A DNA stretch of 20,000 nt. Origin: an uncultured virus (IMG/VR IMGVR_UViG_3300042294_002635). Its lineage: Duplodnaviria > Heunggongvirae > Uroviricota > Caudoviricetes. This document shows positions 3,059 to 20,000 of the stretch, piece by piece (the first letter of the stretch is position 1; every line of letters starts with the position of its first letter). A model generated the notes under the pieces. It saw only the letters and a list, made by a program, of their open reading frames with translations. It did not search any database and was not told the origin of the DNA. A program made the translations under genes and the position numbers. The stretch lies in the IMG/VR virus record IMGVR_UViG_3300042294_002635. One strand, 5' to 3'.

Positions 3059-3066
3059 GACTAACT

Positions 3067-3264
3067 ATGAAAACACCCATCAAGATCAAAAAGCCACGAG
3101 TTCAATCCGCAGACATATACCCATGCAGAACAAAAGTAGGCATGTACTGGTGGCCGATCCCGTTTGACAAGAACGGAAGATTCATCCCGTCGTCTGTGGA
3201 CTGTTTGTATTCACAAGAGTACTTCTCCCAAGGTGATGCAATTCGCATGCTTCGTTCTCTATAA
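3067..3264 (+). CDS. Hypothetical protein
   Basis: Short ORF directly after the polymerase. ATG at 3067 is preferred over TTG at 3055. Confidence 0.6.
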   Translation: MKTPIKIKKPRVQSADIYPCRTKVGMYWWPIPFDKNGRFIPSSVDCLYSQEYFSQGDAIRMLRSL

Positions 3265-3281
3265 CTAACAAGAGCTTAATT

Positions 3282-3758: not shown

Positions 3759-3916
3759 AGCTCGCGTATACTCCGTGGAACTACCTACCACCCACAAAAG
3801 CTGTTACAATTCTGGCGCACGAGAGCGGCGACAGCAACCACCCACCTTCAGGATCCTACATAGATGGTTCCACATGGGTTCACCCGTCGTCAGAAGAATC
3901 CCACCGACTTGTACTT

Positions 3917-4465: not shown

Positions 4466-4510
4466 TGTTTCAACCTTATTCCGAATACCACTTACTCACT
4501 CACACTCAAA

Positions 4511-4726
4511 ATGCCGTTCCCACTCCCCCTAGACCCTGACTTTCGGAAAGAAGTCATACAGAGTTGGATCGAAGACATTTACGATCGCCTAGGTGGTGGT
4601 GACGTAGAAAGTGCGAAGAAAAGTTGGGAAATAGCAAATAAGCTTTATCTCTCCCTCCCAGCTGGGCAGGGGGATTTTTTCATTGAGGAAAGGCTCTTAG
4701 AAGCTAGGGTAAAACTAGAGCGGTAA
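4511..4726 (+). CDS. Hypothetical protein (small, helical)
   Basis: 71-aa ATG ORF that fills the gap between co-oriented genes. Confidence 0.65.
   Translation: MPFPLPLDPDFRKEVIQSWIEDIYDRLGGGDVESAKKSWEIANKLYLSLPAGQGDFFIEERLLEARVKLER
4707..4715 (+). promoter_or_regulatory. GGGTAAAAC motif, candidate late promoter
   Basis: One of six copies located just upstream of structural genes; this one precedes the tail chaperone. Confidence 0.55.
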
Positions 4727-4741
4727 AGATACAACATCACC

Positions 4742-5065
4742 ATGCGAACTGTAACTACAGAACCAAACCCACCCGCAGAACCAAACACCAGACACGATCT
4801 TCTAACCTTTAGCGGAGCCTTGTCGGACGGAAGGCAGATCACAGTTCGTGAAATGACTGGACGAGACCTGCTCTATATCGAGGACGAGTTGTCGGCACTC
4901 GGGGAGACACGGCAGAGCTTTCACCTTGTTGAACGACTAAACGTGGGGCCTGAAAAAGTGTCCTTTGACGAAGTTGCAGACATGGGTGCTCGAGACCTGA
5001 AGGTTGTAGTCGGGTTGATTAAACAGGCTAACGGGTCCGAAGAAGGAAAGAAAGACCCAAAATAA
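4742..5065 (+). CDS. Tail assembly chaperone (Mu gp41 / P2 gpE-like)
   Basis: LSDGRQITVREMTGRDL...FDEVADMGARDL pattern; ends in the slippery heptamer C CCA AAA before TAA. Confidence 0.75.
   Translation: MRTVTTEPNPPAEPNTRHDLLTFSGALSDGRQITVREMTGRDLLYIEDELSALGETRQSFHLVERLNVGPEKVSFDEVADMGARDLKVVVGLIKQANGSEEGKKDPK
5056..5062 (+). other. -1 programmed ribosomal frameshift site (C CCA AAA)
   Basis: X XXY YYZ heptamer immediately before the chaperone stop. The -1 frame is open without stops from here to 5487. Confidence 0.75.
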
Positions 5066-5487
5066 CCGTTGAAGAACTCGAAGACTTTTCCTTTTTAGTC
5101 TCAGTAGGGCGAAACAAGGCAGTTCATGTTCGGGACATTGTCCCGAAAGACTTTATCTTCGCCAGAGTTCTACAAGACAAGGGTTTAAGTGCTATGGGGC
5201 TACTTGCCAGGTTAATTAAGAACCCTGAAAGTCTTGAGACTTTATCTTCCACCAACTTTCGAGCCCTCTACAAGTGGGTCACTGATAATATTCTCAACGA
5301 GAGTATTCTCACTCCGGAAAGTTGGATGGAGATTTCGTTTCACTTGAACAAGCAACGCTGGGACGGCGGAATAGACTGGTTGGACTCTCAACCAATGGCA
5401 CGAATAAAGCGCATGATCGAAATAAACCAGAAAGTTGCTGAGCAGCAGCAAGACGAGATCAAAAAGTCAAGGAGAGCAGGCCGCTAA
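5062..5487 (+). CDS. Frameshift extension of the tail chaperone (G-T type fusion, about 248 aa total)
   Basis: The ORF-track ORF 5194..5487 is open back to the slippery site: ITVEELEDFSFLVSVGRNKAVHVRDIVPKDF... Confidence 0.7.
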   Translation: MTVEELEDFSFLVSVGRNKAVHVRDIVPKDFIFARVLQDKGLSAMGLLARLIKNPESLETLSSTNFRALYKWVTDNILNESILTPESWMEISFHLNKQRWDGGIDWLDSQPMARIKRMIEINQKVAEQQQDEIKKSRRAGR

Positions 5488-5897
5488 TGTTCAAGTTTAG
5501 CCTAAGAACACCTTTCAGAGGTGAGCCATTCAACCCGAATTGGTGGGAACCAACGAAGTTAGAGTGGGCGCCTGTACTCCTGAACGAAAACAAGCCGTAC
5601 TGGAAGAACCAGACTGACACGAACGGTCGAGCCTGGCGCCCACTTACAACACAGTACCGTGCTTGGAAGAGAAAGCAGTACGGCGATCTCCCAATTCTCA
5701 GGGTAACAGGAAAGATGCAGGATACTGCAAAAGTCTTATCTTACCTTAAAAACGATCGCTTTGCGGTCCTTACAACTAGTGTAGGACCCTACCACCAGTT
5801 TGGTACAAAAAACATGGCTGCAAGGCCGTGGATGGGGGTGCCTAAGTCATCTCTCGAAAAACTTTCAGGAATCGCCTGGAAACACATTCTCAATTAA
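5487..5897 (+). CDS. Phage virion morphogenesis / tail completion protein (Mu gpG / P2 gpS-like)
   Basis: WRPLT..Y...K....PILRVTGKMQ and YHQFGTKNMAARPWMG motifs. Confidence 0.8.
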   Translation: MFKFSLRTPFRGEPFNPNWWEPTKLEWAPVLLNENKPYWKNQTDTNGRAWRPLTTQYRAWKRKQYGDLPILRVTGKMQDTAKVLSYLKNDRFAVLTTSVGPYHQFGTKNMAARPWMGVPKSSLEKLSGIAWKHILN

Positions 5898-5906
5898 CTC
5901 ATCACC

Positions 5907-6320
5907 ATGACAAAGACAAGAGCTAAGGACGACAAGGGACAATTTCTTGGAGACAACCCCGCAACGCCGGACGTAGACGAGGCGTGGGTCGAAGACAAGA
6001 GCGAAGTTGCACCTGCCGAGGGGAACAACGCCGATTCAACCGTTGAGGACAAGGTTGAGAAACTGTCGCAAGAGCCCGCCACGGTGGAGCTTAAGACATC
6101 TGAAACGACCGCAGTGAAAGAAAAGCAGAGCAAGGAGTCCATTGAAGCTTCCGTACAAGAAAAGCTCTCAAAAAGACTAGACGGTGAAGTAGACCCCTTC
6201 ATCCCGTCGGCACAGCTTCAAAAGGAAGTTAAAGAGATTGCAAGTCAGGAGGGTTTCCAACTCACACGTGGAACCGAAGCTGGTGCGGCTCTCATGGCCC
6301 GCGCACGTAGGTCTGCTTAA
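5907..6320 (+). CDS. Hypothetical protein, acidic, with N-terminal RAKDDKGQFLGDNPATPDVDEAW motif
   Basis: ATG ORF within the operon; low-complexity E/K-rich body. Confidence 0.75.
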   Translation: MTKTRAKDDKGQFLGDNPATPDVDEAWVEDKSEVAPAEGNNADSTVEDKVEKLSQEPATVELKTSETTAVKEKQSKESIEASVQEKLSKRLDGEVDPFIPSAQLQKEVKEIASQEGFQLTRGTEAGAALMARARRSA

Positions 6321-6322
6321 TC

Positions 6323-6685
6323 GTGAAATCATTTGTCTTCCAACCTGGAATGACATGGAGAAAGCTAGGGTACGGGTTTCACTCGGACTCCTTGGCTTAC
6401 CGTGAAGTTCTAAACTACAACCCCAAGTGGTCTGTCGTCGAGCTTCCCCCTCCAGGGACAGTTCTTCAAGAGGGGGCAAACACAGCAGGGTCAGGGGCAT
6501 CACAGCAGTCCCCAATATTCGGTAGAAGTTCAGGGCAGACATCCTTGGACTTCTACCCCTTTTCAAGCGAAGCAGAATACTTTTTGTCCTTGTCATCCTA
6601 CAATCGGTCCGCCCTTCGTGAAGTGAGCAGGTTGAACGGGTGGTCACTCGATAGCTCCGAAGTTGTTACCGGACAGGTAGGGTAA
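6323..6685 (+). CDS. Tail protein X / LysM-like baseplate protein
   Basis: N-terminal QPGMTWRKLGY.FH....YREVLNYNP......PPPGTVL resembles the P2 gpX LysM-like fold. Confidence 0.6.
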   Translation: MKSFVFQPGMTWRKLGYGFHSDSLAYREVLNYNPKWSVVELPPPGTVLQEGANTAGSGASQQSPIFGRSSGQTSLDFYPFSSEAEYFLSLSSYNRSALREVSRLNGWSLDSSEVVTGQVG

Positions 6686-6688
6686 AAC
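6680..6688 (+). promoter_or_regulatory. GGGTAAAAC motif, candidate late promoter
   Basis: About 95 nt upstream of the sheath ATG. Confidence 0.6.
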
Positions 6689-6783
6689 CTCTAGGTATAC
6701 ACCCTAAACCTTTGGCCTACGGGCACCACCGCCGGACTTATCCTCGCCGGCACAAAGGTAAGGAAAAGGAGGAATCTACCCAA

Positions 6784-9700
6784 ATGGCAACTTTTTCTTT
6801 CGGCACCGGTATCGTCCCCGGAGCACCAGGTACATATATCAACGAGCGTGTTGGAAATGTAGCTTCCACAGGTATTGCCTCGTTCAACACAACTTACATG
6901 TTGGTTGAAACTGAGGAAGACGTCACTGTCGCACGTTTCCCTTTCAACACACCAGTTCCAGTATCTTCACTAACCGACTACAAAGCCTTGGTAGGGAAAG
7001 TTCCCGAAACTCGTATTCCCCTCCTTAGCTACAACTGTGTGAATGCATTCTTTTTGAATGCGCAAGTTGGCGATCTTCGAGTCGTTCGTGTTGGAACTCC
7101 AAACCAGATTGTAGAAATAGAGATTCTTCCGTCGGGCTCCAAGATTAGTAGCACCGGCATTCCATCTACCCTTAAAGCTGGCGACGTAGTTTATGCTCAG
7201 CTTATTTTAAACGGGTTGAAGCTTGTTGCTGGAGACGGCTCAAACGGATACACATCCGAAGGGGAATGGCTCGGCGTGCCAACAGTAATTCCTGTTGATT
7301 ACATTTCCGGTGACAAGGTCAATAACCGCAAAATTTCTGCCGCAATTTCAAGCTCAATCGCCGCAGCTATTCAAAGTAACCCAAGTGTAAGCAGTGCCAT
7401 ATTCGTTCGTGACTCGGGCCTCGCAAACGATTTGCTCCCTTCTTCAAACTCGGAAAGCGGCTACGTAACAATTGCAGCAGCCACCTACGACGGGAGTGTT
7501 TCCGTAATAACCGAGCAGCTGCCAGTTGGAGCGCAAAAGGTCTTAATGCAGACCGCGTATAATATTCAAAATGTCGTTGGCCTTCAAAACAATCTTGAGC
7601 GAGTTCCTCAGGATTACGTTCAGTGTATTAACACTGCCTTTGACGGACAAGCAAACCAAGGGTACCTTGTAACTCCCACCGCGTACGCTCAGTTCGACGC
7701 CGAAGGCCGGTCTCTAGTTGGAGCAGCAGCTGCCGCACACTGCCAGGACAACAACTTTAAGTGGATGGCCGCAGCAGACCCAGGCTCCTTCCTTGTTACC
7801 GACGTAAACAAGTACAAAGAGTACACTCCGCATCAGCCCGCAGAAGACCTTGTAACCGACAACCTATACCTGGTTGATAACGCCATCTATCAGTGGAAGG
7901 GTGAAGAAGTAACATACGACCGTCTAAAACACCAGACCCTAGTTCCCGGCTACGACCCTAAGGTTGCTGTTCAGTCGTCAGTGGAGGGAGTAGCGGAGGG
8001 CGAAACTGTTGGCCTCCTAGACTTAGCCAAGTTCACAGTCACATCCTCTGCCTCTCTAGCCAACCGGGGAGTCTTCGCCCTGGGGTCAAGCACAGTTTGG
8101 CCGGTAGACTACCAGATTCAACGAGTAACATTGAGTGGCCTTGGCGCGGATTTTCTGCCCCTACTTCCACTTGGAGAAACCTCAACTGAGGTGTACTTCG
8201 TGGCACCCCCACTTTCCAGTGCCCAATACGGAACGTACCCATCAGACGGACAAGTACAATACGTTTATATCGCACAAACTTCTACTCAAGCTGTGTCAAT
8301 TCTGGCTGAAGTTACAGCCTTGGGGGGTACCAGTGCTGCATTAAACGCACCTTTAACTCCCTCCGGAGCATTCAGTGTTGCATCCCCAACTTCAAGTACA
8401 GCTCAAGCGACTTATACCACACCCCAGTGGGATTTACCTGTAACTATTGAGGGTCAGACCTCAAACTTGATTCACAATCTGACTGGTGCTCCTGCTTTTG
8501 TGAACACTCTCCACTTACCTGGAAGCTTACAGAACACCACCGATGACTACCGCCTATCCTTTGTAAGCCGCTCACTATTCAACCCCTCAACTGTGCTCTC
8601 CTCAAGCACTGTCCCAGGATACACCGGTGCCGTTTCCTTCGGAGTGACATCTCACAAATTAGTTAACGGACAGAAACTTTTCTTTACTAAGCCCATTCTG
8701 GCAGGCGCTGCAACCCTGTTTAAGGCAACAGTTAGAAACAATCTACAAGCTTATTATGTTAAGGTAATTGACCCCGATAAGTTTGTACTTGCAACTTCTA
8801 GCTCCAACTACCTTGCAGGTTCTTACGTTCCCTATCCTGTTGGGATGGTGAGCATTTCCACGAGTCCCACCATCCTATACACTTCGGTCCTAGGCGGCGG
8901 GTTAACTACTGTGAACCTCTCAGAGTTGAGCGTTGTTCCGCTGGTTCGAGGGAGAAAGTACGGTCTGGCTTCAGGTACAATCGCAGACCGTGCGTACGAT
9001 CACAACTTGCTCACGGCGAACGACGATCCAACTGTATCCCTGTACCTGAACTCAAGTCCCTTAGTTATTGGGTCGGAGCACGTCTACCCGTACGGTGAAA
9101 CTGCTAACGCGGGGTGGTTACCCTCTTTAGAACTTGTGGGGCCTGGGGAAACCTCAACGAGTGTTGAGAACTTTCTTTGCACCCCCACTGTGGACCAAAA
9201 CTTCTCTTCGGAAGCACACATCGTCCCTGTGATCGATCCGATTTTCGGAGGAAACTTCAGCGCAAGTACCACTGTTGTCCTCGGAAAGCTTGCTTCTGTA
9301 ACGCCATACGTCACCGCTTGTGGTCTCCTCGTTGACAGCACTGGAGTTGCAATTCAAGCAGCTCTATCAAAATTGAGCGGAGTTTATTTTAACGTTACGG
9401 TTGCACCGGCGAACTCCGTTGCTCCTGACGGAGTTACACGAGTCGTTGTCGGGGACAGGTTGGCGGTTACATTTGACGGCTCATCCTACAGTTGGGTTGT
9501 TGTGCCGGCGAACACCCTTGGCGGTGACTTGAGCACAGTTTCCACTGTTTGTTACGGTTCACAAGTTGAATTTGCCCTCACTCCTGAACAAACACCAAGC
9601 GCAAATCTGTGGAGATTCGAGACCATCACGTCTACCGAAATTATCGACGAAGCACTTCGTGGAGTTGGATTTGCAGGCGAACCTCAAGCTGTGTTTGTGG

Positions 9701-10437
9701 AAGCGGGTGTTGACAATGTCAACAGACTATTCGAGGACAGCCAGCGCTACTTCAATGCCTTCGGCTTCATCGCTTTCTACGGCCCATACGTGGAGAACTC
9801 GGCAGGACAATTTGTTCCCCCCTCTCCGTATGTGACCGGGATCGCAGCTCGCCGTTACCGCTCCGAAGGGTTCCAGTTCCCACCTGCAGGTACCAAGTAC
9901 CAACTCGCAGACGCTGCTGGCGTTCAAATTTCTGTAAACTCGGCTCAGCAAAACTTGCTCAACCCTGACGGCTGCAATGTTCTTCGTTCCTTGCCAGGGT
10001 ACCCTAACACTGCGGTGTTCGTCTGGGGTGGACGCACTCGAATCAACAAGGCAGTTGCGGATCAGCGTAAGTTCCAATTTGTGAACACTCGTGTGATTCA
10101 GAATGTTGTTTACGGTTCCCTTCGCAATGCTTTCGACAACCAGATCTTCTCGGTTGTTGACGGGTTTGGTATTGTGTTCAATCAAATTGTTTCCATTGGG
10201 AACAGCGTTCTGAGCCAGCTTTACCTCTCCGGTGCACTCTTCGGTGCGAGACCCTCGGACGCATTCCAAGTGATTTGTGACGAGCGCATTAACAGCGGAG
10301 ACAACCTCGAGAACGGTGTTGTTTTTGTGAAGGTGTTTGACACCCCCGTACCAACACTGGAAAGAATCGAGGTTGATCTTATTCGCGTCTCTGTTGGCCA
10401 AATGAATAGAGAACTTGATTCTCAGGGCCTAGGTTGA
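6784..10437 (+). CDS. Contractile tail sheath protein, unusually large (~1217 aa)
   Basis: Strong RBS (aaggagg) before ATG 6784; N-terminal APGTYINE; C-terminal AFYGPY, VPPSPYVTG, GFQFPPAG, LNPDGCNVLR, VWGGRT, FVNTRVI and FQVICDERIN sheath motifs. Confidence 0.92.
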   Translation: MATFSFGTGIVPGAPGTYINERVGNVASTGIASFNTTYMLVETEEDVTVARFPFNTPVPVSSLTDYKALVGKVPETRIPLLSYNCVNAFFLNAQVGDLRVVRVGTPNQIVEIEILPSGSKISSTGIPSTLKAGDVVYAQLILNGLKLVAGDGSNGYTSEGEWLGVPTVIPVDYISGDKVNNRKISAAISSSIAAAIQSNPSVSSAIFVRDSGLANDLLPSSNSESGYVTIAAATYDGSVSVITEQLPVGAQKVLMQTAYNIQNVVGLQNNLERVPQDYVQCINTAFDGQANQGYLVTPTAYAQFDAEGRSLVGAAAAAHCQDNNFKWMAAADPGSFLVTDVNKYKEYTPHQPAEDLVTDNLYLVDNAIYQWKGEEVTYDRLKHQTLVPGYDPKVAVQSSVEGVAEGETVGLLDLAKFTVTSSASLANRGVFALGSSTVWPVDYQIQRVTLSGLGADFLPLLPLGETSTEVYFVAPPLSSAQYGTYPSDGQVQYVYIAQTSTQAVSILAEVTALGGTSAALNAPLTPSGAFSVASPTSSTAQATYTTPQWDLPVTIEGQTSNLIHNLTGAPAFVNTLHLPGSLQNTTDDYRLSFVSRSLFNPSTVLSSSTVPGYTGAVSFGVTSHKLVNGQKLFFTKPILAGAATLFKATVRNNLQAYYVKVIDPDKFVLATSSSNYLAGSYVPYPVGMVSISTSPTILYTSVLGGGLTTVNLSELSVVPLVRGRKYGLASGTIADRAYDHNLLTANDDPTVSLYLNSSPLVIGSEHVYPYGETANAGWLPSLELVGPGETSTSVENFLCTPTVDQNFSSEAHIVPVIDPIFGGNFSASTTVVLGKLASVTPYVTACGLLVDSTGVAIQAALSKLSGVYFNVTVAPANSVAPDGVTRVVVGDRLAVTFDGSSYSWVVVPANTLGGDLSTVSTVCYGSQVEFALTPEQTPSANLWRFETITSTEIIDEALRGVGFAGEPQAVFVEAGVDNVNRLFEDSQRYFNAFGFIAFYGPYVENSAGQFVPPSPYVTGIAARRYRSEGFQFPPAGTKYQLADAAGVQISVNSAQQNLLNPDGCNVLRSLPGYPNTAVFVWGGRTRINKAVADQRKFQFVNTRVIQNVVYGSLRNAFDNQIFSVVDGFGIVFNQIVSIGNSVLSQLYLSGALFGARPSDAFQVICDERINSGDNLENGVVFVKVFDTPVPTLERIEVDLIRVSVGQMNRELDSQGLG

Positions 10438-10439
10438 AA

Positions 10440-10721
10440 ATGAGTGAGTTAACAGACAAGGAAGTAAATCTACAGATTCCTGACTCACTCTTTCTTTCAC
10501 TTACAAGAAAAGCAAAACAGCAGGGTGTCTCAATTGAGGCACTCTGTGTTTCTTTACTTGAGGGGGAGCAAGTTTTCGTAGAGCCATCCCTCTACCCTTC
10601 GATGGGTAATGGGGACTTGCGAACGGAAATTCAAAAGCTTATGCAAAGCTCCCTGCCGAAAGACGAGGTGAACAAGCGAGTGCGGAAGTTGGAAGCACAA
10701 CTCTTAAGGCTAATACGATGA
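10440..10721 (+). CDS. Ribbon-helix-helix (CopG/HicB C-terminal-like) DNA-binding protein
   Basis: VNLQIPDSLFLSLTRKAKQQGVSIEALCVSLL fits the RHH beta-alpha-alpha pattern. Confidence 0.65.
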   Translation: MSELTDKEVNLQIPDSLFLSLTRKAKQQGVSIEALCVSLLEGEQVFVEPSLYPSMGNGDLRTEIQKLMQSSLPKDEVNKRVRKLEAQLLRLIR

Positions 10722-11095
10722 CGGTACCGCAAACTTTATCACCCTTAGTACGAGGCTTGTCTTACCCGTTGAGGGTGTTGAACGGAAACTTAGCCACAAG
10801 TACGGACTATGACTTGAAGACGCAGGAAATTCGAAGTGTCGTTGAAACGAGGTTCTTTGAGCGAGTAATGAGGGCGGACTACGGCGTCGGAGACCACACC
10901 CTCGACATAATCGACCCCGGACAAATTAACTCAGAGTTTCAAAATTCGATACAAACCCATGTGTCCGGGTTGTCGTCCCTCGTTGTGAAGGGGGACTGGG
11001 TCACATCGGGAGAAGACGGAGTGTATAAGGTGTACATAATTTACCAAGTCAACGGAATTCCTCAACCGCCGCTCGAATTCTCCCTCGGAAACTAA
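10718..11095 (+). CDS. Baseplate wedge protein (T4 gp25 / gpW-like)
   Basis: GLSYPL...NG.LA and IRSVVETRFFERVMRADYGV match the gp25 T..GER.MRP.FG pattern. Confidence 0.8.
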   Translation: MTVPQTLSPLVRGLSYPLRVLNGNLATSTDYDLKTQEIRSVVETRFFERVMRADYGVGDHTLDIIDPGQINSEFQNSIQTHVSGLSSLVVKGDWVTSGEDGVYKVYIIYQVNGIPQPPLEFSLGN

Positions 11096-11097
11096 GC

Positions 11098-11106
11098 GGG
11101 TAAAAC
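11098..11106 (+). promoter_or_regulatory. GGGTAAAAC motif, candidate late promoter
   Basis: Intergenic, 50 nt upstream of the portal start. Confidence 0.6.
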
Positions 11107-11156
11107 CTATACAGGAAATAAATGCCGAAACCAAACACGTGTGAAAAGAGGTAACT

Positions 11157-12656
11157 TTGGCAAATAGGTTTAAGACAGCTCCGGTACCGAAGGGGGAGAT
11201 CTCAAGTTATACGAGCGACCCTTATAACTTATCCAGTATTTACATGTTTGGGAGCTCTTCTCCCTTTACTGGATCCGGAAATAGCATCGTTCGACCAAGT
11301 GACGACCTTCTCATCCAGAAGGGAGGAAACCGTGCGCTTTCCGTCTATCAGCGGCTTTTCTTTGACGAGCACGTACAAAGTTCGTTCTCAAAGTTAGTTC
11401 AAGAGGTTGTATCGAGACCGTGGTACGTTGAGGAATACAGCTCAAAGCCTGGCGATACTGCAGTAAGGGACTTCGTAGCAGAAATCCTCGAAGAACTACC
11501 CTTAGACGAGATATATAAGGGACTTGCTGAAGCCCTTATCGTGGGGTTTAGTGTTGGCGAAATAATGTGGAAGAAATCAAAACGCGGGGTGATACCCTTT
11601 GACATTAGAATTAGAGACCAGCGCCGATTTGTTTTCCAAGAAGCGGAAGACTCACAAACGGGCTTCACAATGAGGTGCTTAACTTTCAATCGTATGTTTG
11701 AGGGGGTTGAGCTCCCTGCTCGAAAATTCGTCGTAAATCGCTACTGGACTCAGCACAACGGGGACCCATACGGAACTTCGCTAGGGCGAGTTCTTTACCC
11801 TCTGGTAAAGTTCCGGAGAAGAGCCCTTGAGTCCTACGTTCTCTATGGGGACCGGTACGCAACACCCACAGCTGTTGCGACCGCACCCCTAAGCGCGTCT
11901 TCTGCTGAAATTGACACGATTTATGATCATATCTCAAACTTATCTCAGGAAACTGCGCTAATTTTGCCGGATGGGTACAAGCTTGAGTTTGTCAACCCGA
12001 GCGGAACTCCGGATGTGTTTAAGGGACTGATTGACTATATCGACAAGGAAATTAGCCTCATACTTTGCGGGGAAAACGAGGCTGGGCAAGCTGAGTCTGG
12101 ATCCAGAGCTTCTTCACAGGTTGCCAACGTTGTTCGAGTTGTGAAGGCAGCGGAAATTTCCGAAGCGATCTCTCACACTTTGACTCGCACCCTGGTACGA
12201 TGGATTGTAGACCTTAACTTCGGTGTAGACGTTGCAGCGCCAACCCTCACAAGGGAGTTTCGAATTGAGGAGTCTTCTCTCACTGCCACCGACCTGAGTT
12301 CCCTTATTGACAAGGGGTACAAACCGCGTAGGGAGTGGGTTGAGAGGCATTTTCGTATTGAGCTTGAAGACGAAGCTCCTGAGTTCACGACGAAAGAGGA
12401 AGAAGGGAATACCACCTATAGCCCTGACGAGGACGAGGACCTTTACGGATCTATTTTTGGTGCTGACGGAGAGTACCCCGAAGGAAGTCCAGAGGACGAG
12501 CCGGAGGGTGGCGACGAGCCAAAGCCGAAGGAAGAACCATCCGGTGAGCAAACCACGTACAACCCTGAAGAAGACGGAAACCTTTACGACTCAGTGTTCG
12601 GGAATGACTTAGAACCCACTGAAGAGGGCAAAAAGAAGGGTAAAAAACGTATATGA
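11157..12656 (+). CDS. Portal protein (Mu gp29 / DUF935-like)
   Basis: TTG start with aagaggt RBS; AL..GFSVGEIMW, DPYGTSLGR.LY, DRYATP, IDYIDKEIS.ILCG, GSRASSQV and LVRWIVDLNFG motifs; acidic C-terminal tail. Confidence 0.88.
   Translation: MANRFKTAPVPKGEISSYTSDPYNLSSIYMFGSSSPFTGSGNSIVRPSDDLLIQKGGNRALSVYQRLFFDEHVQSSFSKLVQEVVSRPWYVEEYSSKPGDTAVRDFVAEILEELPLDEIYKGLAEALIVGFSVGEIMWKKSKRGVIPFDIRIRDQRRFVFQEAEDSQTGFTMRCLTFNRMFEGVELPARKFVVNRYWTQHNGDPYGTSLGRVLYPLVKFRRRALESYVLYGDRYATPTAVATAPLSASSAEIDTIYDHISNLSQETALILPDGYKLEFVNPSGTPDVFKGLIDYIDKEISLILCGENEAGQAESGSRASSQVANVVRVVKAAEISEAISHTLTRTLVRWIVDLNFGVDVAAPTLTREFRIEESSLTATDLSSLIDKGYKPRREWVERHFRIELEDEAPEFTTKEEEGNTTYSPDEDEDLYGSIFGADGEYPEGSPEDEPEGGDEPKPKEEPSGEQTTYNPEEDGNLYDSVFGNDLEPTEEGKKKGKKRI
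12638..12646 (+). promoter_or_regulatory. GGGTAAAAA variant motif, candidate late promoter
   Basis: Immediately upstream of the protease/scaffold ATG; overlaps portal Lys codons, so it may be coincidental. Confidence 0.35.
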
Positions 12657-15232
12657 GTACAACGAGTAGCAAAGTGTTTTCAAAACGTGTTCATGTTTTT
12701 ACGGCGGGACCCCAGGTTTCTGCTCAGGGCGTGGAAAGGAACTTCACACCTCAAGACCTTCAGCAAGTTGTTGATTCCTACGACCCCCAAACACATGAGG
12801 CACCCCTTGTTATTGGTCATACTGGGGACAACGACAGTGTTCCTTCTTTTGGGTGGGTCAAAAAGTTGGTCAGAAGCGGAGAGAAGCTATACGCAGACGT
12901 TGACTTCACTGACACTGCTAAAGATTTAGTGAAAAAAGGGCATTACCGCAAAGTCTCCATATCCTTCTACTCTCCGAACTCTCCAATTAACCCGCATGAG
13001 GGACAGTGGAGCGTTCGGCATTTGGCACTTCTGGGAGCGTCGCCCCCTGCGGTTAAGGGCCTGGAGCCTTTCTCGTTCTCTGAGGAAGGTGACGGAGTGT
13101 TCAACTTCGCTTCAACCCTCTCTCCCGAAGACATCTTTGACGATGAGCTCGGCCCCACACTTCTTGTTGAGCGAGGCCCGTTGGAAATCCTAAAGGAAAA
13201 GCTTGAGGAAATTCGTGGAGACATGAGTTCTTCTATTCAAGAGCTACAAGAAAACCAAGACGATCAGACTGAAACAGACGTCGATTCGACACAAACTACA
13301 AATTCGGCGGATGAAAGTACCGCCCCCGAAAACCCTAACCAGCAATTTTCCGAAATGAAAAAGAAAATGGGGCGTGAAGGAGCTGAAGTCTCCGAATCCG
13401 CTCAAAGTCTAGCAAACATGGAAGACAAATTTCCAGAAGAGAAGTTCGACGAAGGAGTCTCTCGCAAAGTTGCGAAGGGTGCTCACGGCCACCATGTACA
13501 AGTTGTGGAAGAGGTTTTTGAAGAAGGCGACGAAGAACTCTCGGACGAACACCGCGAGATTCCCGCTGCTTTCAAGAAAAATATCGCTAAGATGAAGGCT
13601 AAGCACAAAGCCCACGATGAGGACGGGGAAGATGATGAAGACGAACTTTCCGACGAACACCCAGAAGTTCCTGCGGCTTTCAAGAAAAATATCGCTAAGA
13701 TGAAGGCCAAGACAGCGAAGGTGGAAGAATCCGACGAGGAAGATTCTGAGGGCGACTACGCTGAGGTAGGGTTTAAGAAAACTGCGAACAGACAGGCATC
13801 ATTTGGAAAACGTGCTGAGAAGGATTCAGGGGATCCAGCTGGTCGTTCTAAAACAGCACGGTCATCCGACGATAGCTACGGGGACCGTCAGTCGGTTGGA
13901 CAAGGGGATGAGGAAGACCGCGAAGGTTTGACTTCAGACGTGACGCAAGACACGGACCGTTTAAACACTGCTAAGGACGGTGACCAGGAGCAAGACCGAG
14001 AAGAGCTGGCGAAAGCACTCGACGGTGAAGGGGACGAAGATTCCCGTTGGGCCGACCAACCTGAGGGTCGCCGCCGTTCAATGGAAGACGACCAGTACAA
14101 CGACGGTGAGTACGGCCTCCCCGGAAGAAACAAGCCGGGAACCTCCGATGGAAACGACCCCCACGGTCGCGACGGCGGGCCAACAACCGTCTCTGAGGAC
14201 TCTGAGGAAGAGCCCGACACCGAAGATATTGCTGTGCCGCTTCAGAGCACCAAAGGCAACAAAGTTTCTCGCGTTCTCCACCAAACCTCTGGACAAAAGA
14301 GGGCGTCGGTCAAAGGTAAGGAAATTGCGGATCACAGCGAAGAGTCCGACGGTGTTACACGAACTGCGAAAAAGGCAGGTGTTTCTGCGGGGAACGATCC
14401 CCACGGTCGCGAAGACGGACCCACAAACTTCCCAGACCGGTCCGAGGAAGAGCCGGACGACCTCGACATTGCTGTCGACCTAGAAAGTGTCGTTGGTAGT
14501 CGCAAAGTTCGTGTGCTGCGTCAGCGATCGGGTGAAAAGCCTTCGATCGACCACGCTGAAGAAGACGATCTTGACATGGAAGAGTGTGGGACTTCCAGGA
14601 AAGTTTCTCGCAAGTTCGCAGAACGCGATCCAATGACTCGAACCGGAAAGGGCTCGACTTACGGGCAAAAGCGTCCCGCTATGGAAGAGGATCCGGACGA
14701 GGATGGCGACCGTGACGACAACGAATTCGCTGAAACTGACGACTTCTGCGGAATGGGGTCAATGGGACAGGCTAAGCCCATGGGATATCCGGTTCAAATG
14801 TTCGAGGAGTTCCAACGCGAGCTGGAAAATCTTAAGAATGAAAATTCTCGCCTGAAGAGAGAGTACCAGGAGCATCAGACCAAAACACGTAAGCAACGCA
14901 TCGCCGACTTTGTTGACAGCCTCTACACCGAAGGAAAGATGACCGACGGAGTAATTCCTCAGAGAGAGCTTCAAAACTACTGCGAAGGTCTTGAGTTCGG
15001 TACACTTGACTTCGCAGAAGGAGAAACTCCAACGACCAAGTTGTTTGCGCTGCTTGAGCGTTTGCCCAACATGGTTCACTTCGGTGAAGTTGTCGCAGAG
15101 GGACGTTTCAGTGACCCTGAAGATGACGAAGATCTAGACCCCCATTCTCGTGCAATGAAGATGGTTCAGGCTGGAGAGTGCGATTACGTTGAGGCAATCA
15201 AGCGTTCCATTCCTTGGGGAGGTCGGGGCTGA
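12653..15232 (+). CDS. Mu-like prohead protease fused to a long acidic scaffold
   Basis: N-terminal YDP..HEAPLVIGH, FGWVKKL, YRKVSISFY, RHLALLGASPPAVKGL; a repetitive acidic middle region; C-terminal coiled coil and IADFVDSL..EGK. Confidence 0.88.
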   Translation: MSTTSSKVFSKRVHVFTAGPQVSAQGVERNFTPQDLQQVVDSYDPQTHEAPLVIGHTGDNDSVPSFGWVKKLVRSGEKLYADVDFTDTAKDLVKKGHYRKVSISFYSPNSPINPHEGQWSVRHLALLGASPPAVKGLEPFSFSEEGDGVFNFASTLSPEDIFDDELGPTLLVERGPLEILKEKLEEIRGDMSSSIQELQENQDDQTETDVDSTQTTNSADESTAPENPNQQFSEMKKKMGREGAEVSESAQSLANMEDKFPEEKFDEGVSRKVAKGAHGHHVQVVEEVFEEGDEELSDEHREIPAAFKKNIAKMKAKHKAHDEDGEDDEDELSDEHPEVPAAFKKNIAKMKAKTAKVEESDEEDSEGDYAEVGFKKTANRQASFGKRAEKDSGDPAGRSKTARSSDDSYGDRQSVGQGDEEDREGLTSDVTQDTDRLNTAKDGDQEQDREELAKALDGEGDEDSRWADQPEGRRRSMEDDQYNDGEYGLPGRNKPGTSDGNDPHGRDGGPTTVSEDSEEEPDTEDIAVPLQSTKGNKVSRVLHQTSGQKRASVKGKEIADHSEESDGVTRTAKKAGVSAGNDPHGREDGPTNFPDRSEEEPDDLDIAVDLESVVGSRKVRVLRQRSGEKPSIDHAEEDDLDMEECGTSRKVSRKFAERDPMTRTGKGSTYGQKRPAMEEDPDEDGDRDDNEFAETDDFCGMGSMGQAKPMGYPVQMFEEFQRELENLKNENSRLKREYQEHQTKTRKQRIADFVDSLYTEGKMTDGVIPQRELQNYCEGLEFGTLDFAEGETPTTKLFALLERLPNMVHFGEVVAEGRFSDPEDDEDLDPHSRAMKMVQAGECDYVEAIKRSIPWGGRG

Positions 15233-15264
15233 TAGCTCCGATACTGCTGCCCGGAGATTAAGCT

Positions 15265-15972
15265 ATGGACCTTCTAACTTTGGTCGGGCAGGTAACGAAA
15301 AAGCGAGCGGACTACTTCTCTCAAGCAGAGGTCTTAGCTCGCAAAGCGAAAACACAAGAGAAGCTGGAAAGTCTCATGACAAACCAGTCGAAAGTTCTTG
15401 TGAAGGCTTTGCGAGACAAGGATATTCGCTGGGATGAGTATTCTCGAACTTTGATTGATAAAACGCTGTCGGCAGCCCTCGCTGCCGTTTACCTGGGGGC
15501 AGGGAAAGCCGCACCGAAAGCAAAAGTCGAACGGGCCTGGGGCACTGTGACCGGGCAAATGCTCCCACCTTTGTTGGAATTCTTGAGCCAAACTGAACTA
15601 GCCTTAAACGACGGGACTCTAATGCTCGGCGACGACCGCATAAATTTCTCGGAAATTGATCTTAAAGACATTTACGAAGGAGACGAAGAGGTGTTCCCAC
15701 CGAAGCCGAAAATGTCCTGGCTGAGCCTTGTTACCAGAGTCGTTCGCTACCTTGCAAACCCTTCCTACTCATTTTTCAACCTTGGTGACTCCTACGTCAA
15801 ACAAGAGCAGGGTTACCGGGAGATGCGGCGAGTGCCAGTATTGGACAGGAGAACTTGCCCCGACTGCATAAAGTTTGGGGAGATGGGGTGGCAGCCCTTT
15901 GGAACCCTGCCGATGCCGGGGCAAGAGTGCCGGTGCTACGATCGCTGCCGCTGCCGAATCGACTACCGTTGA
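15265..15972 (+). CDS. Head morphogenesis protein (Mu gpF / SPP1 gp7-like)
   Basis: C-terminal DRRTCPDC...LPMPGQECRCYDRCRCRIDY cysteine motif; located in the head cluster. Confidence 0.7.
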   Translation: MDLLTLVGQVTKKRADYFSQAEVLARKAKTQEKLESLMTNQSKVLVKALRDKDIRWDEYSRTLIDKTLSAALAAVYLGAGKAAPKAKVERAWGTVTGQMLPPLLEFLSQTELALNDGTLMLGDDRINFSEIDLKDIYEGDEEVFPPKPKMSWLSLVTRVVRYLANPSYSFFNLGDSYVKQEQGYREMRRVPVLDRRTCPDCIKFGEMGWQPFGTLPMPGQECRCYDRCRCRIDYR

Positions 15973-16013
15973 CTTTTAAACGAACTCACCATGGTTCAAA
16001 CTAAGGTGAAGCA

Positions 16014-16022
16014 GGGTAAAAC
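16014..16022 (+). promoter_or_regulatory. GGGTAAAAC motif, candidate late promoter
   Basis: Intergenic, upstream of the decoration gene. Confidence 0.6.
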
Positions 16023-16096
16023 CTGATTAACTAAGCTAGGTGAAAAACAAGTCCTAGAGAAACCAACAAAACCAATAACCCTTTGAAAATATCAAA

Positions 16097-16570
16097 ATGG
16101 CCTTTAACATTGCACCAGTTTACGGTAAGCAATTCATTCGTTACGCGGAGACTTTCACAGCTGCTACTGACAACCAAGGTGGAACGGCTGGAGTCGTTGA
16201 AATTCCTGAGTTCGCAGTTGTTGCTTACGCAACCTACGCCGGAGCTAACAAAGTTTGCGCCCCTGGAAACCTGACCGCTTTTGATGGGAAGATTGTAGGC
16301 GTGAATCAGTCCTACATTCCCACAGCCCTTTCCCAACCTCGCACCGCTCGTCAAGCTTCTGTGGCCACCAGTGGCTCCTTGCTTGTTGAAGTGAGTGCCA
16401 GCGCCGTGGCCCCCTTCGTACTCAACGCCCAGCTTTCAGTTGGTGCTGACGGCAAGGCGCTACCCACTGCGAATACCGGGACCAACGTCACTCTTGACGG
16501 TACTATCCCGCTCATTCGTGAAATCGTGCGAATCGGCGGTCGCACTGTCTTGCTGGTTTCATTCGCCTGA
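16097..16570 (+). CDS. Probable head decoration / capsid cement protein
   Basis: 157 aa, rich in Ala/Gly/Val/Thr; ASVATSGSLLVE...LSVGADGKA pattern; directly upstream of the major capsid gene. Confidence 0.6.
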   Translation: MAFNIAPVYGKQFIRYAETFTAATDNQGGTAGVVEIPEFAVVAYATYAGANKVCAPGNLTAFDGKIVGVNQSYIPTALSQPRTARQASVATSGSLLVEVSASAVAPFVLNAQLSVGADGKALPTANTGTNVTLDGTIPLIREIVRIGGRTVLLVSFA

Positions 16571-16578
16571 GAAAAGCT

Positions 16579-16599
16579 GACGCATTTCGGTGCGTTTTT
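16579..16599 (+). terminator. Intrinsic terminator 1
   Basis: gacgcat-TTCG-gtgcgtt hairpin running into a T-tract. Confidence 0.6.
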
Positions 16600-16602
16600 A
16601 CT

Positions 16603-16635
16603 AAGAGCCTTCAACTTTCGAGTTGGGGGCTTTTT
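16603..16635 (+). terminator. Intrinsic terminator 2
   Basis: agccttcaact-TTCG-agttgggggct hairpin running into a T-tract. Confidence 0.75.
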
Positions 16636-16647
16636 CGTGAAAAAGAA

Positions 16648-16656
16648 GGGTATAAC
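16648..16656 (+). promoter_or_regulatory. GGGTATAAC variant motif, candidate major capsid promoter
   Basis: Just after the terminators and about 90 nt before the capsid ATG. Confidence 0.55.
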
Positions 16657-16743
16657 TACAGTGACCCCAAAGTTTTCGGACTCGCGGGTCAGATTGCTTC
16701 GGCAATCTTTGAAGTCAACTTTACACACAAGGAAACATCTATT

Positions 16744-19700
16744 ATGATGAATCATAAAGGTTCCACTCAGAGGTGACTCTGATTGAAAATCGGGTGAATT
16801 GCTGGGATACCTTAGTTTTGCTTTTGCAAAATAGGCAATCAGCAGCCAAGGCCCCTAGGGATGGGGGCAAGGTTCAACGACTAACAGCGTACCACTAGAA
16901 CAGTGATGAGGCTGACACGAGTGCCCGACTCTTTGCTCAGGCAAAGATGATGATATAGTCTGAACTTTACAGAAATGTAGAGAAGTAAAGGATAAAGAGC
17001 CTTTACGATAACAAGTTGCTACAACAAACTTATGCAGGTGTGGATTAATTAGGGTCCCAACTTCCAAACAAAGTTGAAAATCGGGTGAATTGCTGGGACA
17101 CCTTAGTTTTGCTTTTGCAAAATAGGCAATCAGCAGCCAAGGCCCCTAGGGATAGGGGCAAGGTTCAACGACTAGATTAAGTAGCCTAGAACAGGCGAAC
17201 AATCCACGAGCGCCCGACTCTTTGCTCAAGCAAAGATGATGATATAGTCTGACCTGTATGGAAACATACAGAAGCAAAAGATAAAGAGCTTTTGCGATAA
17301 CACTGGCCAATCCTCACAACACTCGCACAAGGCTTCATGCTCCCTTTGGTGTAGGGGAAAAGAAATTGGGTGAACTGCGGGAAAGCCTACTTTTGCTTAG
17401 CAAAAGGGTCAATCCGCAGCCAAGCTTCCGGTACACCGGAAGAAGGTTCAGAGACTACCTGGGGGATTTAGTTCCCTTAATAACAGGCTAGAGCGCCCAA
17501 CGTTTTGTAAAGAAACGATAAGATAGTCCGACACTCTGTGTAAGCAGAGAAAACATACTGTCCACCAACATTGCGAATCGATAGGGTTCCACTCAGAGGT
17601 GACTCTGATTGAAAATCGGGTGAATTGCTGGGATACCTTAGTTTTGCTTTTGCAAAATAGGCAATCAGCAGCCAAGTTTACTTAGGGTCTCTACTAACTA
17701 TAGTAGTGTTAAGTAAAAAGGTTCAACGACTAGAAAGTGATCAACCCTGAAATAATCTTTCCACGAGCGCCCGACTCTCCCTTACACTACCAACGGTACA
17801 TAAAGTTTATCCTCTCCAGACCCCCAAGGAGTTTGACACGAGAACCCGGACACCACATTCACCATATAGTGCCCAAGTGCATGAAGGGTGGAAATGAAGA
17901 TGGTAACCTAATCAAACTCACCTACAGAGAGCACTACCTGTCTCACTGCCTACTGGCTCTAGCTTTCTCTTCCATAAAGAGGTTAGGCAAAGCTATAAAC
18001 TCTTTCAAGGAGTCTTCGAAAAACTCCAGAGTGTACGAAACCTTAGCTCATCATAAACACTCGGACGAAACTAGGTTTAAAATTGGCAAATCCAATAAAG
18101 GAAAGGCCAGACCCAGGAAAGTTCCAATGTCTGATAAAGAAAGATCCGCTCGTGCAGAATTATGCAAGAACAGAGTGTGGAGTGCAGAATCAAGACAGAA
18201 ACTTAAAGATAAGGCACTTAGTAAACCAACTATACAATTCGCCTTGCAAGCCGCTAATAGACCCGACCGGGATCGAACAGGCATTAAAAACCCTCGGGCT
18301 AATGTCGAAGTTTGGTCTAATTTAGGTTTATTGCATGAAGTTTGGGTTTCTAACGAAAAGTGTGGGGCCAGGAAGCTGTTCCGGCTAACCGGTCTAGGTA
18401 ATACTTGGCAGTCTCTGCGAACCGTTGTTAAAAAGTTTAAGGAAGATGATGATATAGTCTGATCTTTGCAGAAATGCGAAGAAGTGAAGGATAAAGAGCC
18501 TTCACGGTAACAAGTGTTTATCGCACCGGTTGTGGACACCCCTACCCGCGCTGGGAGAATTCTCAGATTTGGGAAGGAACAGTTTGCTATAAACGATTTC
18601 CGTCGTGCTTACGGAACTAACATCCCATACGTCCAAAGCCGCTACGACTCTGAGCCTTATGCTCTAGAGCAGGAAGTGGTCGCCTGGGAATTGCCTGAAG
18701 AGGTAATTGAAAATGCCGGGGAAGGGCCCGCGCAGGTGGATTATTTTTTACGTGCAATTTCGATCGCAGCGTAGGTCCACTATAAATTGGGTGAATTGCT
18801 GGAACCCCCGTGTGGGAAATCAGCAGCCAAGTTTACTACGTCGAATCAGTACTATACTGAAAGTAGTAAAAAGGTTCAACGACTAGATGTTGAGTTTCGA
18901 CAACAATAACGCATCCACGAGCGCCCAAAGCATTGTATGCCACTACTTAAACAAGTACGAGAAGTGGTATTGGAGTTTAATTGACAAGTACGAGAAGAGA
19001 GACCAACTCCCAGACCAATACGAGTGCCATCACCCCATCCCCAAAGAAATTTGGCCAAAAGGGTGGAGAGACTCTTCCGTAATTTGGACTGTTGGAGTTA
19101 CCTTTAGGGAGCACTTTATACTTCACCTTTTGCTGGTGAAGTCTGGTTTGTCTGGCTCTTGTGCCCTGAAAAGATTTTTAGATCAGTTCGGGCGCGGAAG
19201 AAACAAAACCTCTACAGCCACAAATCTTAAGCAGTTTTGGAAAGATTTCATGAACGCCAGGTTTGTCCCCCATAACAAAGGGAAGACAGGACTACCTTAC
19301 GTCACAGAAAGTTATAAACAAGCTGTAGGTAAAGGCGGAAGAGGGAGGTTGAACAACCCCTCCCTGGTATGCAAGCCTTGGAAAAATAACAAGGCATCAA
19401 ATGAAACCCTAGAAGTATGGGGCATTGCAGATTACCTTCACTTCCACTACCAGTTCGTCCCTAAAAAGAAAGGTAACAACGGTTGCTGGAGACTAGCAAA
19501 AGCAGTCGGCATCCCTCCCTCCACAACTTTGTCAAATATAGTCCAAGCTTTCAACGGAAAACTCAAATCTCTCTGTCCGAACGGGGGAAAGTGGGACCCG
19601 AACGAAGATCAAGACTGGATAACTTCCTCAATGTTATGATATAGTCTGAACATTGCCGACAACAAGGTAATGAATCAGCGGATAAAGAGCCGCTGAGTTA

Positions 19701-20000
19701 ACAAATTGCTTCGCGCAATCGAAACCAGGAATGCAATGTCCAGATTGATGAACAGCTACGAGTACACCGTTGCTCAAGCTGTTTCCGTCACCGCGACTTA
19801 CAACCCTTACGAGCCCTATAACGGAACCGCAGGTTCCCAGACCGGACTCGGTTTCACAACCTGGACAAACTTCAAGACAGCTTACGGCTCCGTTGCTGGA
19901 GACGCCGCCTGGTCTGGTGCTACTTCTAACCCAATTGAAGACATCCTAACCCTCAAGCGTGCAGTCGCCAACCAAATCGGTATCCGTCCAAACTCCGCAG
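16744..20000 (+). CDS. Major capsid protein, split by five group I introns, 3'-partial: join(16744..16752,17019..17045,17307..17345,17561..17578,18517..18741,19709..>20000)
   Basis: RBS aagga at 16729. The spliced product is MMN|LQQTYAGVD|PILTTLAQGFMLP|STNIAN|FIAPVVDTPTRAGRILRFGKEQF...GPAQVD|LRAIETRNAMSRL...WSGATSNPIEDILTLKRAVANQIGIRPNSA. VDPILTTLAQGF and W....SNPIEDI.......GIRPN are capsid-family motifs, and the gene position fits. Confidence 0.9.
16753..17018 (+). mobile_element. Group I intron 1 (266 nt, no ORF)
   Basis: P1 gaaU/Gttc; P AATTGCTGGGA; Q AATCAGCAG; R TTCAACGACTA; P3 tcgggtg/tgcccga; P8 tctttgc/gcaaaga; S ATGATATAGTC; terminal G at 17018. Confidence 0.9.
17046..17306 (+). mobile_element. 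Group I intron 2 (261 nt, no ORF)
   Basis: P1 ggaU/Gtcc; the same P, Q, R and S elements; begins with in-frame TAA; terminal G at 17306 restores VD|PIL. Confidence 0.92.
17346..17560 (+). mobile_element. Group I intron 3 (215 nt, minimal, no ORF)
   Basis: P1 tcccU/Gggga; P10 ttggtg pairs with exon caccaa; P AACTGCGGGAA; Q AATCCGCAG; R TTCAGAGACTA; S AAGATAGTCC; terminal G at 17560. Confidence 0.92.
17579..18516 (+). mobile_element. Group I intron 4 (938 nt) carrying an HNH endonuclease
   Basis: P1 gaaU/Gttc; 7-bp P10 cgatagg/tttatcg; complete P, Q, R and S elements; ORF expands P8; terminal G at 18516. Confidence 0.93.
17737..18462 (+). CDS. Intron-encoded HNH homing endonuclease with NUMOD3-like repeats
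   Basis: YQRYIKFI...HIHHIVPKCMKGGNEDGNLIKLTYREHYLSHCLL; HSDETRFKIGKSNKGK; WSAESRQKLK. Confidence 0.88.
   Translation: MINPEIIFPRAPDSPLHYQRYIKFILSRPPRSLTREPGHHIHHIVPKCMKGGNEDGNLIKLTYREHYLSHCLLALAFSSIKRLGKAINSFKESSKNSRVYETLAHHKHSDETRFKIGKSNKGKARPRKVPMSDKERSARAELCKNRVWSAESRQKLKDKALSKPTIQFALQAANRPDRDRTGIKNPRANVEVWSNLGLLHEVWVSNEKCGARKLFRLTGLGNTWQSLRTVVKKFKEDDDIV
18742..19708 (+). mobile_element. Group I intron 5 (967 nt) carrying an HNH endonuclease
   Basis: P1 gtggaU/Gtccac; P AATTGCTGGAA; Q AATCAGCAG; R TTCAACGACTA; S ATGATATAGTC at about 19636-19646; terminal G at 19708. Confidence 0.92.
18887..19639 (+). CDS. Intron-encoded HNH-type homing endonuclease
   Basis: KYEKWYWSLIDK...YECHHPIPKEIW...VTFREHFILHLLL, the same HNH subfamily pattern as the intron 4 ORF. 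Confidence 0.82.
   Translation: MLSFDNNNASTSAQSIVCHYLNKYEKWYWSLIDKYEKRDQLPDQYECHHPIPKEIWPKGWRDSSVIWTVGVTFREHFILHLLLVKSGLSGSCALKRFLDQFGRGRNKTSTATNLKQFWKDFMNARFVPHNKGKTGLPYVTESYKQAVGKGGRGRLNNPSLVCKPWKNNKASNETLEVWGIADYLHFHYQFVPKKKGNNGCWRLAKAVGIPPSTTLSNIVQAFNGKLKSLCPNGGKWDPNEDQDWITSSML

Follow-up and report, generated by a model that had tools for sequence, protein, structure and literature searches.

Several group I introns within one phage protein gene are not without precedent. Staphylococcus phage Twort has three in orf142, where exon skipping is also known (PMC11878797, citing Landthaler and Shub 1999), and DNA polymerase and terminase genes of Bastillevirinae are described as having up to three (PMC11878797). 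Capsid genes too can be hosts. Mycobacteriophage LittleE and lactococcal phage Tuc2009 have capsid-gene introns, with that of LittleE containing a homing endonuclease (PMC3706429), and the major capsid gene of Faustovirus E12 is reported to have 13 exons and 12 introns, five of the latter being group I (PMC6247863). How does the locus considered here compare? It lies at the 3′ end of a 20,000-nucleotide (nt) stretch of DNA, termed the window in what follows, from an uncultured virus of the Caudoviricetes (IMG/VR record IMGVR_UViG_3300042294_002635). The gene starting at position 16744 is, judged by its similarities, a major capsid gene, and very probably six group I introns splice from it, having accumulated there by homing and being tolerated.

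With Twort and Bastillevirinae it has in common that phage protein genes have several phage-typical self-splicing group I introns, some with an HNH open reading frame (ORF), and very short exons. The differences are in number, six introns here and thirteen in relatives versus a maximum of three, and in the gene, since here it is that for the major capsid protein whereas theirs are for DNA metabolism or the tail tube. Exons go down to 9 nt here and, in relatives, to 5 nt. LittleE and Tuc2009 have a single intron per gene; unlike the present case, they lack both micro-exons and a population of alternative sites. With Faustovirus E12 there is a shared dispersal of a capsid gene into many short exons (13–527 bp there), some intron endonuclease ORFs and recognition by junction reads (PMC6247863). 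However, that is a eukaryotic giant virus of amoebae with a double-jelly-roll capsid protein, mixed intron types and GIY-YIG endonucleases, whereas the phage here is tailed and has one group I family with HNH-type ORFs. The full-text literature, with subscription journals and bioRxiv supplements outside the scope of the search, yielded no description of a multi-intron cyanophage or phage capsid gene. A first-pass annotation, made from the sequence letters, had called the gene unusually intron-dense for a phage. That stands, as the published maximum found is three group I introns per gene (PMC11878797), a number doubled by the six here and roughly quadrupled by the thirteen of relatives; the correction needed is that the window has just one allele in a lineage carrying 0–13 introns in the same gene. 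The array is real and expressed, and it is a known kind of mobile element in extreme form, not something new in kind.

The window covers the 5′ three quarters of the gene, and the source of what lies 3′ of it was another IMG/VR record (G001), which is 100% identical to window positions 15239–20000 (4762 nt) and extends 960 nt further. On the plus strand, exon 1 (16744..16752; 9 nt, codons 1–3) has the ATG start, with the first residues matching the major capsid protein of Synechococcus phage S-CBWM1 from residue 1. It is followed by intron 1 (16753..17018; 266 nt) at site 9, a site being the position in the coding sequence (CDS) that precedes the intron, and then by exon 2 (17019..17045; 27 nt), intron 2 (17046..17306; 261 nt; site 36), exon 3 (17307..17345; 39 nt), intron 3 (17346..17560; 215 nt; site 75) and exon 4 (17561..17578; 18 nt). 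Introns 1–3 have no ORF. Intron 4 (17579..18516; 938 nt; site 93) and, after exon 5 (18517..18741; 225 nt), intron 5 (18742..19708; 967 nt; site 318) each have an endonuclease ORF. The first 292 of the 577 nt of exon 6 (19709..20000) reach the window end, and beyond it are intron 6 (329 nt; site 895), which occupies positions 3724–4052 of the whole-gene sequence L235 (equivalent to 1494–1822 of L003), and exon 7 (L235 4053–4213), with 161 nt including the stop. The boundaries of intron 6 were set by colinearity with the intronless proteins of S-CBWM1 and S-TIM5. In total the gene is 4032 nt, of which the seven exons account for 1056 nt (26%), and the first five sum to a mere 318 nt within 2965 nt of gene. 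The five intron positions originally proposed, with exon sizes of 9, 27, 39, 18 and 225 nt, were reproduced exactly, and the surmise that more introns may follow was justified by the sixth just past the window end (84.4 bits, in the 100%-identical record). That capsid-protein synthesis depends on splicing was also rightly proposed; the number of reactions, given as five, has to be raised to six.

Does the joined frame make sense as a capsid protein? On intron removal it is open, and a junction peptide named beforehand is found in it. The product has 351 amino acids (aa) and is 67% identical over its full length to the annotated major head protein of S-CBWM1, whose gene is intronless. The alignment has only two gaps, both of which are within exon 6, leaving all six junctions free of gaps; with the S-TIM5 protein, identity falls to 39%. 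The early expectation of one continuous frame with capsid identity, and the check proposed for it, colinearity with intronless capsid homologues, have thus held up well. Profile searches were run on single exons and on an intronless homologue, P0003, rather than on the joined protein. Exon 5 matches phrog_1005, 'major head protein', at profile positions 33–100 (E 1.7e-8), and exon 6 matches the consecutive positions 109–177 (E 1.4e-6). Pfam gave no match with exons 5 and 6 singly, and P0003 is Phage_cap_E (PF03864) at 42.5 bits against a cut-off of 22.9. Pfam and PHROG annotation made no second capsid gene visible in the window. By these similarities the gene is the major capsid gene, lambda gpE-like and of the HK97 class, and the only one seen in the window. 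Gene callers break its relatives into fragments that start or stop at intron sites (P0001, P0002, P0004, P0005), and because this marker gene is so fragmented, capsid-based surveys and phylogenies of freshwater cyanophages will miss or misplace these phages.

Are the exons found joined in RNA? At least 78% of sampled exon-6 words are present in each of 20 metatranscriptome runs, which come from 15 studies and mostly bear a lake-water label, and contigs of four runs (four studies) were placed on the whole gene, L235, whose coordinates are used for the joints. The joint for intron 1 (190>457) is present in three of these runs, with the fourth having a variant, 191>460, and those for intron 2 (483>745), intron 5 (2179>3147) and intron 6 (3723>4053) are present in all four. 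For introns 3 and 4 together, exon 3, the 18 letters of exon 4 and exon 5 are found in succession (784>1955), as joints in two runs and as loose ends in the other two. One RNA contig of 1537 nt holds all seven exons, ~99% identical to those of the window, and its variant letters (CDS 156, 184, 513, 681, 795 and 1020) are those of an allele, L182, which has introns 1–5 in its DNA. The contigs join exons at the exact bases predicted, as the proposal to look for the junctions in metatranscriptomes had anticipated. Other joints, among them 196>1023, 191>1049, 366>3074 and 3875>2304, lie in sequence that introns have in common and are taken to reflect strain variation or assembly jumps, not alternative splicing. 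A contrast in contig depth between exon and intron (e.g., 546 versus 19 in X1) looks splicing-like and was left unused, as contig depth cannot rank parts of a gene.

The suggested search with Infernal and Rfam bore out group I identity, with RF00028 (gathering score 50 bits) finding introns 1–4 at 88.2, 97.8, 66 and 72.2 bits (E 1e-15 to 1e-24) and intron 6 at 84.4 bits; intron 5 came from a permissive scan of 16600–20000. The match in intron 4 contains a long insertion in the P8 region, and intron 3 is without the 3′ P9.1 hairpin seen in the others. The one other match of the permissive scan, to the Rfam sRNA Bp1_684 inside intron 5 (19.6 bits against a cut-off of 44), was taken as chance. 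A U-G pair in P1 and a terminal G had been proposed for every site, and both are seen for all six introns: the preceding exon ends in T, the intron ends in G, and P1 has 4–8 bp with U.G at the splice site, its length being 5 bp in intron 1, 6 bp in intron 3 and 8 bp in intron 5. The P1 of intron 2 was read by eye using the family-conserved guide at intron nt 7–12, and the partner offered for that intron by an automated search was discarded as spurious. In each of the six, an in-frame stop occurs 1–45 nt past the 5′ splice site and upstream of the ribozyme core; in intron 1 it is at intron nt 22, and the first three bases of intron 2 are themselves a stop codon.

Relatives permit the helices to be examined for selection. 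An IMG/VR search with the exon-6 protein gave 68 loci, of which the 64 with at least 80% identity were analysed, L231–L234 (32–42% identity) being excluded from all intron counts. From an alignment of 80 distinct ORF-less introns of the family, RNAalifold predicts P3, P4, P5, P6, a P7.1/7.2-like helix, P8, P9 and P9.1, with double compensatory changes in 36 of 48 pairs, or in 36 of 53 once the 5-bp P7, which is invariant across the 80, is added. Paired cells amount to 97.7%, compared with 80.2% on shuffling (none of 500 shuffles reaches the observed value) and 35–45% when partners are slid, and the covariation score is 0.528 where controls have a maximum of 0.122. The ribozyme cores are present, structurally conserved and under selection. 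Between P7 and P3′ is a covarying 3-bp helix with a long loop (helix 7), and the six introns are classed as one family in which the additional hairpins of this interval may be IA-like. The alignment is modular: the 5′ guide segment is site-specific, and variants of P5, P6, P7.1/7.2, P8 and P9 recur in differing combinations across sites. As a separate observation, introns 1 and 4 share both a splice-site word and a 5-nt guide (16748–16763 and 17574–17589), so intron 4 could in principle pair with exon 1 and cause skipping of exons 2–4 (84 nt, in frame), as in Twort; the corresponding joint, 190>1955, is not listed among the RNA joints of the four runs.

The ORF in intron 4 (P0151; 17737..18462, plus strand) has 241 aa and is a predicted HNH-type homing endonuclease with a NUMOD3 motif, and that in intron 5 (P0152; 18887..19639, plus strand), with 250 aa, is assigned to the same endonuclease family. 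Both match phrog_655, 'homing endonuclease', the former at 1.3e-22 and the latter at 7.3e-8; NUMOD3 in the intron-4 ORF scores 21.3 bits against a cut-off of 20.4, and the intron ORFs also give a match to phrog_12434, 'HNH endonuclease', at 1.2e-6. In a 24-member homologue alignment, two motif histidines, one proline and two further histidines are invariant or nearly so, with strict invariance at four His/Pro positions of the intron-4 ORF. The 57 long introns of the analysed loci hold 35 distinct ORFs, and all but one of these, the intron-5 ORF included, are in a single blastp family of 34 members within which endonuclease identity between sites is 20–59%. The nearest known enzymes are nicking HNH endonucleases encoded in group I introns of phages. 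One, I-HmuI, combines HNH at its N terminus with NUMOD motifs and, at its C terminus, a helix-turn-helix domain. Another, I-PfoP3I, comes from an IA2 intron of a freshwater cyanophage (PMC3428280). The ORFs here, predicted to be of HNH type, are likewise situated within phage group I introns. In contrast to those enzymes, the present ORFs have no sequence match to a solved structure and weak fold matches only, and nicking by them is putative.

Loss and gain of these ORFs can be seen by comparing alleles. Intron 4 has an ORF-less form of 263 nt (L173), intron 5 one of 280 nt (L167), and intron 1, which is ORF-less in the window, has an endonuclease-bearing form of 899 nt (L167). Ten sites have both short (215–330 nt) and long (about 800–1020 nt) introns. 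Five ORF-less introns, s160_L199, s303_L168, s303_L176, s356_L186 and s318_L225, keep the endonuclease start codon and the first dozen codons, which overlap the P7.2/P3′ core. From their sequence, ORF-less introns with such a leftover start look like deletion derivatives of ORF-bearing ones.

What, then, weighs against six introns that splice and have spread by homing? The RNA data are assembled contigs rather than raw reads, the presence of the joined forms in DNA runs is not reported, and near-identical intron-free DNA alleles exist for sites 9, 93, 318 and 895 (L230, L183, L182), so RNA joints at those sites alone could come from such strains. Intron 5 has 49.9 bits (E 5.6e-11), 0.1 bit below the RF00028 gathering score. 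The terminal T and G in relatives are imposed by the alignment procedure and therefore are not independent evidence there. Pfam HNH is reached by the intron-4 ORF at an E of just 0.16 and the intron-5 ORF has no Pfam match. For the structure predicted for the intron-4 ORF (confidence, pLDDT, 78), the top rows of Foldseek are HNH domains at an E of 0.24 or above, which is weak, and the best Z of a wide VIA-align search, 6.7, is middling and concerns only the resemblance of the C-terminal 56 residues to three-helix DNA-binding (helix-turn-helix) domains. Foldseek of that structure against the PDB gave nothing at E <= 0.001, and a PDB sequence search with the same ORF gave no match at E <= 1. Self-splicing of the introns and endonuclease activity are predicted properties.

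Could the joined RNA contigs all derive from strains without introns in their DNA, with the window allele being poorly spliced or dead? DNA can occur in RNA libraries and contigs show neither strand nor abundance, which, together with the four intron-free sites just mentioned, would accommodate it. However, among the 64 loci no allele with >90% nucleotide identity is without introns 2 and 3 (sites 36 and 75). The nearest one with no intron at all, L187, has 79–90% nucleotide identity, and the all-exon contig is, as noted, ~99% identical to the window exons. Also contrary to it are the recurrence of the window's six-intron layout in six complete IMG/VR loci from different samples (L167, L169, L170, L172, L173, L174), the strong compensatory variation in the ribozyme helices and the lack of any other capsid gene visible in the window. 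This explanation is accordingly very unlikely. Introns 2 and 3 are spliced in vivo, and introns 1, 4, 5 and 6 very likely are as well. Still further from being credible is that metagenome mis-assembly stitched repeated intron-like sequence into the gene. Introns 1, 2 and 4 do share stretches that are 87–98% identical, and jumps from one homologous intron part to another are seen in some RNA contigs (e.g., joint 196>1023, with 92 shared letters), but the same order and boundaries are present in independent contigs, the six loci just listed and G001, the 5′ guide segment of every intron is specific to its site, and removal of the introns restores a perfect frame.

How variable is the array among related phages? 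Profile hidden Markov models were built from the window's six introns and their matches constrained a spliced alignment of the relatives; when unconstrained, the alignment misplaced micro-exons and yielded spurious 7-nt and 5-nt exons inside introns. As intron 3 is without the 3′ hairpin, the 3′ search window was widened; the constrained alignment then correctly recovered the control locus L174, whose structure is that of the window, exon 4 included. In these loci intron cores detected by the profiles, 0–13 per locus, are confined to the gene's strand and to the capsid gene. Introns are present in 45 of the 64, all with a stop-free spliced CDS, and absent from 19. The 199 introns represent 120 distinct sequences at 16 sites (9, 36, 41, 75, 93, 150, 160, 192, 273, 281, 303, 318, 356, 889, 895 and 927), of which the window occupies 9, 36, 75, 93, 318 and 895. 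L193, L194 and L228 have thirteen introns each, with exons down to 5 nt. The 279,339-bp record behind L193, G002, has terminal repeats, is rated 100% complete and is a more distant relative with 65–70% DNA identity; RF00028 independently gives 14 matches in its capsid region. A closer relative, G003, has a set differing from that of the window, with introns at sites 9, 41, 281, 303 and 356. The capsid gene has 14 of the 17 strong RF00028 matches of G002 and seven of the eight of G003. By P1 homology, what seemed a separate 'site 100' in L193, L197, L199 and L226 is counted as site 93. The intron concerned (L193 4018–4301, and the other three loci) is divergent and its 3′ end is ambiguous, in that the G-ended, frame-keeping boundary replaces the conserved FIAP motif and the motif-keeping boundary ends in A.

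Exon sequence next to the sites also differs in an informative manner. In alleles with differing intron sets, runs of third-codon-position changes adjoin the sites while the remainder of the gene is 98–100% identical. Every codon of CDS 291–315 differs between alleles with the intron at 318 and those with introns at 281 and 303, 16 third-position changes occur between CDS 18 and 84 on comparing '36/75/93' with '41' alleles, and alleles having the intron at 356 show nine from CDS 324 to CDS 357. Such synonymous tracts are the pattern to be expected if homing was accompanied by co-conversion of flanking exon from a divergent donor.

From established group I chemistry, each intron would pair its internal guide with the last 4–8 exon bases, with U.G at the cut; free guanosine would attack the 5′ site and, after docking of the terminal G, the exons would be ligated. 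The stop codon 1–45 nt into each intron would halt ribosomes ahead of the ribozyme core. On co-infection, the HNH-type intron enzymes would cut or nick intron-free alleles, and repair would copy in the intron together with some flanking exon sequence. The present crowding would stem from diversification of a single intron/endonuclease family, which came to use at least 11 target sites within this conserved gene; subsequent loss of endonuclease ORFs would have given ORF-less introns, and recombination would have shuffled intron modules. By default, the array would be read as selfish elements that have piled up and are tolerated thanks to efficient splicing.

Might it be something more than selfish DNA? 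A role as adaptive weapon and shield in a strain-level arms race is conceivable, though it seems the less probable account. In it the HNH enzymes, radiated to at least 11 targets in one 351-codon essential gene, would, tentatively, cut the capsid gene of intron-free co-infecting relatives, and it is possible, if again doubtful, that an occupied site, with or without its ORF, or synonymous recoding protects the carrier so that strain competition drives the pile-up. There is precedent in PhiPA3, where an intron endonuclease has been found experimentally to interfere with a co-infecting jumbo phage (PMC11620839). Outside the gene, strains can be ~97% identical and yet have alternative intron sets with little overlap, the recoded synonymous tracts exactly adjoin sites, one endonuclease family is split into at least 11 site-specific lineages, and most or all of the strong RF00028 matches of the two near-complete genomes, G002 and G003, are in the capsid gene. 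Yet every such pattern would also be expected from ordinary homing with co-conversion, with cleavage and fitness effects being putative and the host uncultured, and G002 additionally has three introns in its DNA primase gene. Accumulation by homing is thus retained as the default. If the competitive role were true, intron number (0–13) would record competition history rather than neutral parasitism, and the same population data bear on whether introns act in phage–phage competition.

Whichever applies, exons of 5–18 nt show how little flanking exon sequence a group I ribozyme needs. As six accurate splicing events are needed for what is the most abundant protein of the virion, in a lake phage that is itself abundant, the gene is a natural system in which to ask how efficient splicing is in bacteria, in what order it proceeds and how it is coupled to translation. 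The 16 sites, the forms with and without ORFs, the recoded flanks and the shuffled modules amount to a natural experiment in the colonisation of new sites by introns and homing endonucleases.

What kind of phage is this? Positions 1–16700 of the window are colinear with G003, a 277,244-bp record rated 98% complete, at 93–97% identity over 16.7 kb. G003 has an uninterrupted psbA-type reaction-centre gene (L236, G003:C1:272210-273082; a 359-aa open frame, 284 bits); psbA gave no match in G002 at E <= 0.001. The colinearity with G003 and its psbA-type gene therefore identify the window, on sequence resemblance, as from a strain of freshwater jumbo cyanophage with a genome of ~277 kb. By their annotation the genes upstream of the capsid gene are those of a large myovirus. 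With Pfam and PHROG, 128–3058 is a family-A DNA polymerase whose exonuclease domain is of mitochondrial type, and there follow a tail sheath of 1241 aa (6712–10437), a Mu-type portal (11157–12656) and a head protease of 859 aa (12653–15232). The polymerase matches the pol-gamma-type exonuclease PF18136 at 206.6 bits and phrog_22619 at 1.6e-217, and in S-TIM5 a DNA polymerase gene is likewise annotated near the capsid gene. In the head protease ORF the protease profile spans residues 9–397 only; the C-terminal ~460 residues are without a family match and may be a fused scaffold. Between an ORF at 16097–16570 and the capsid gene, two GC-rich hairpins with T runs (16577–16645), seen by eye, are terminator-like, and a purine-rich motif on the plus strand (16729..16735), 8 nt 5′ of the start codon, is as read from the sequence a candidate ribosome-binding site.

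Introns are also seen outside the capsid gene. The second split gene of G002 (L237, G002:C1:18500-23500; ~1878–2955, minus strand) has three RF00028 matches (83.2, 64.7 and 58 bits) between ORFs matching the N- and C-terminal parts of PHROG 25243, 'DNA primase'. More widely, P3-P4/P6 core words of the family are in >129 IMG/VR contigs (L038–L117 among them), mostly with one copy per locus, and in L070 three copies of the core words occur within 1.2 kb.

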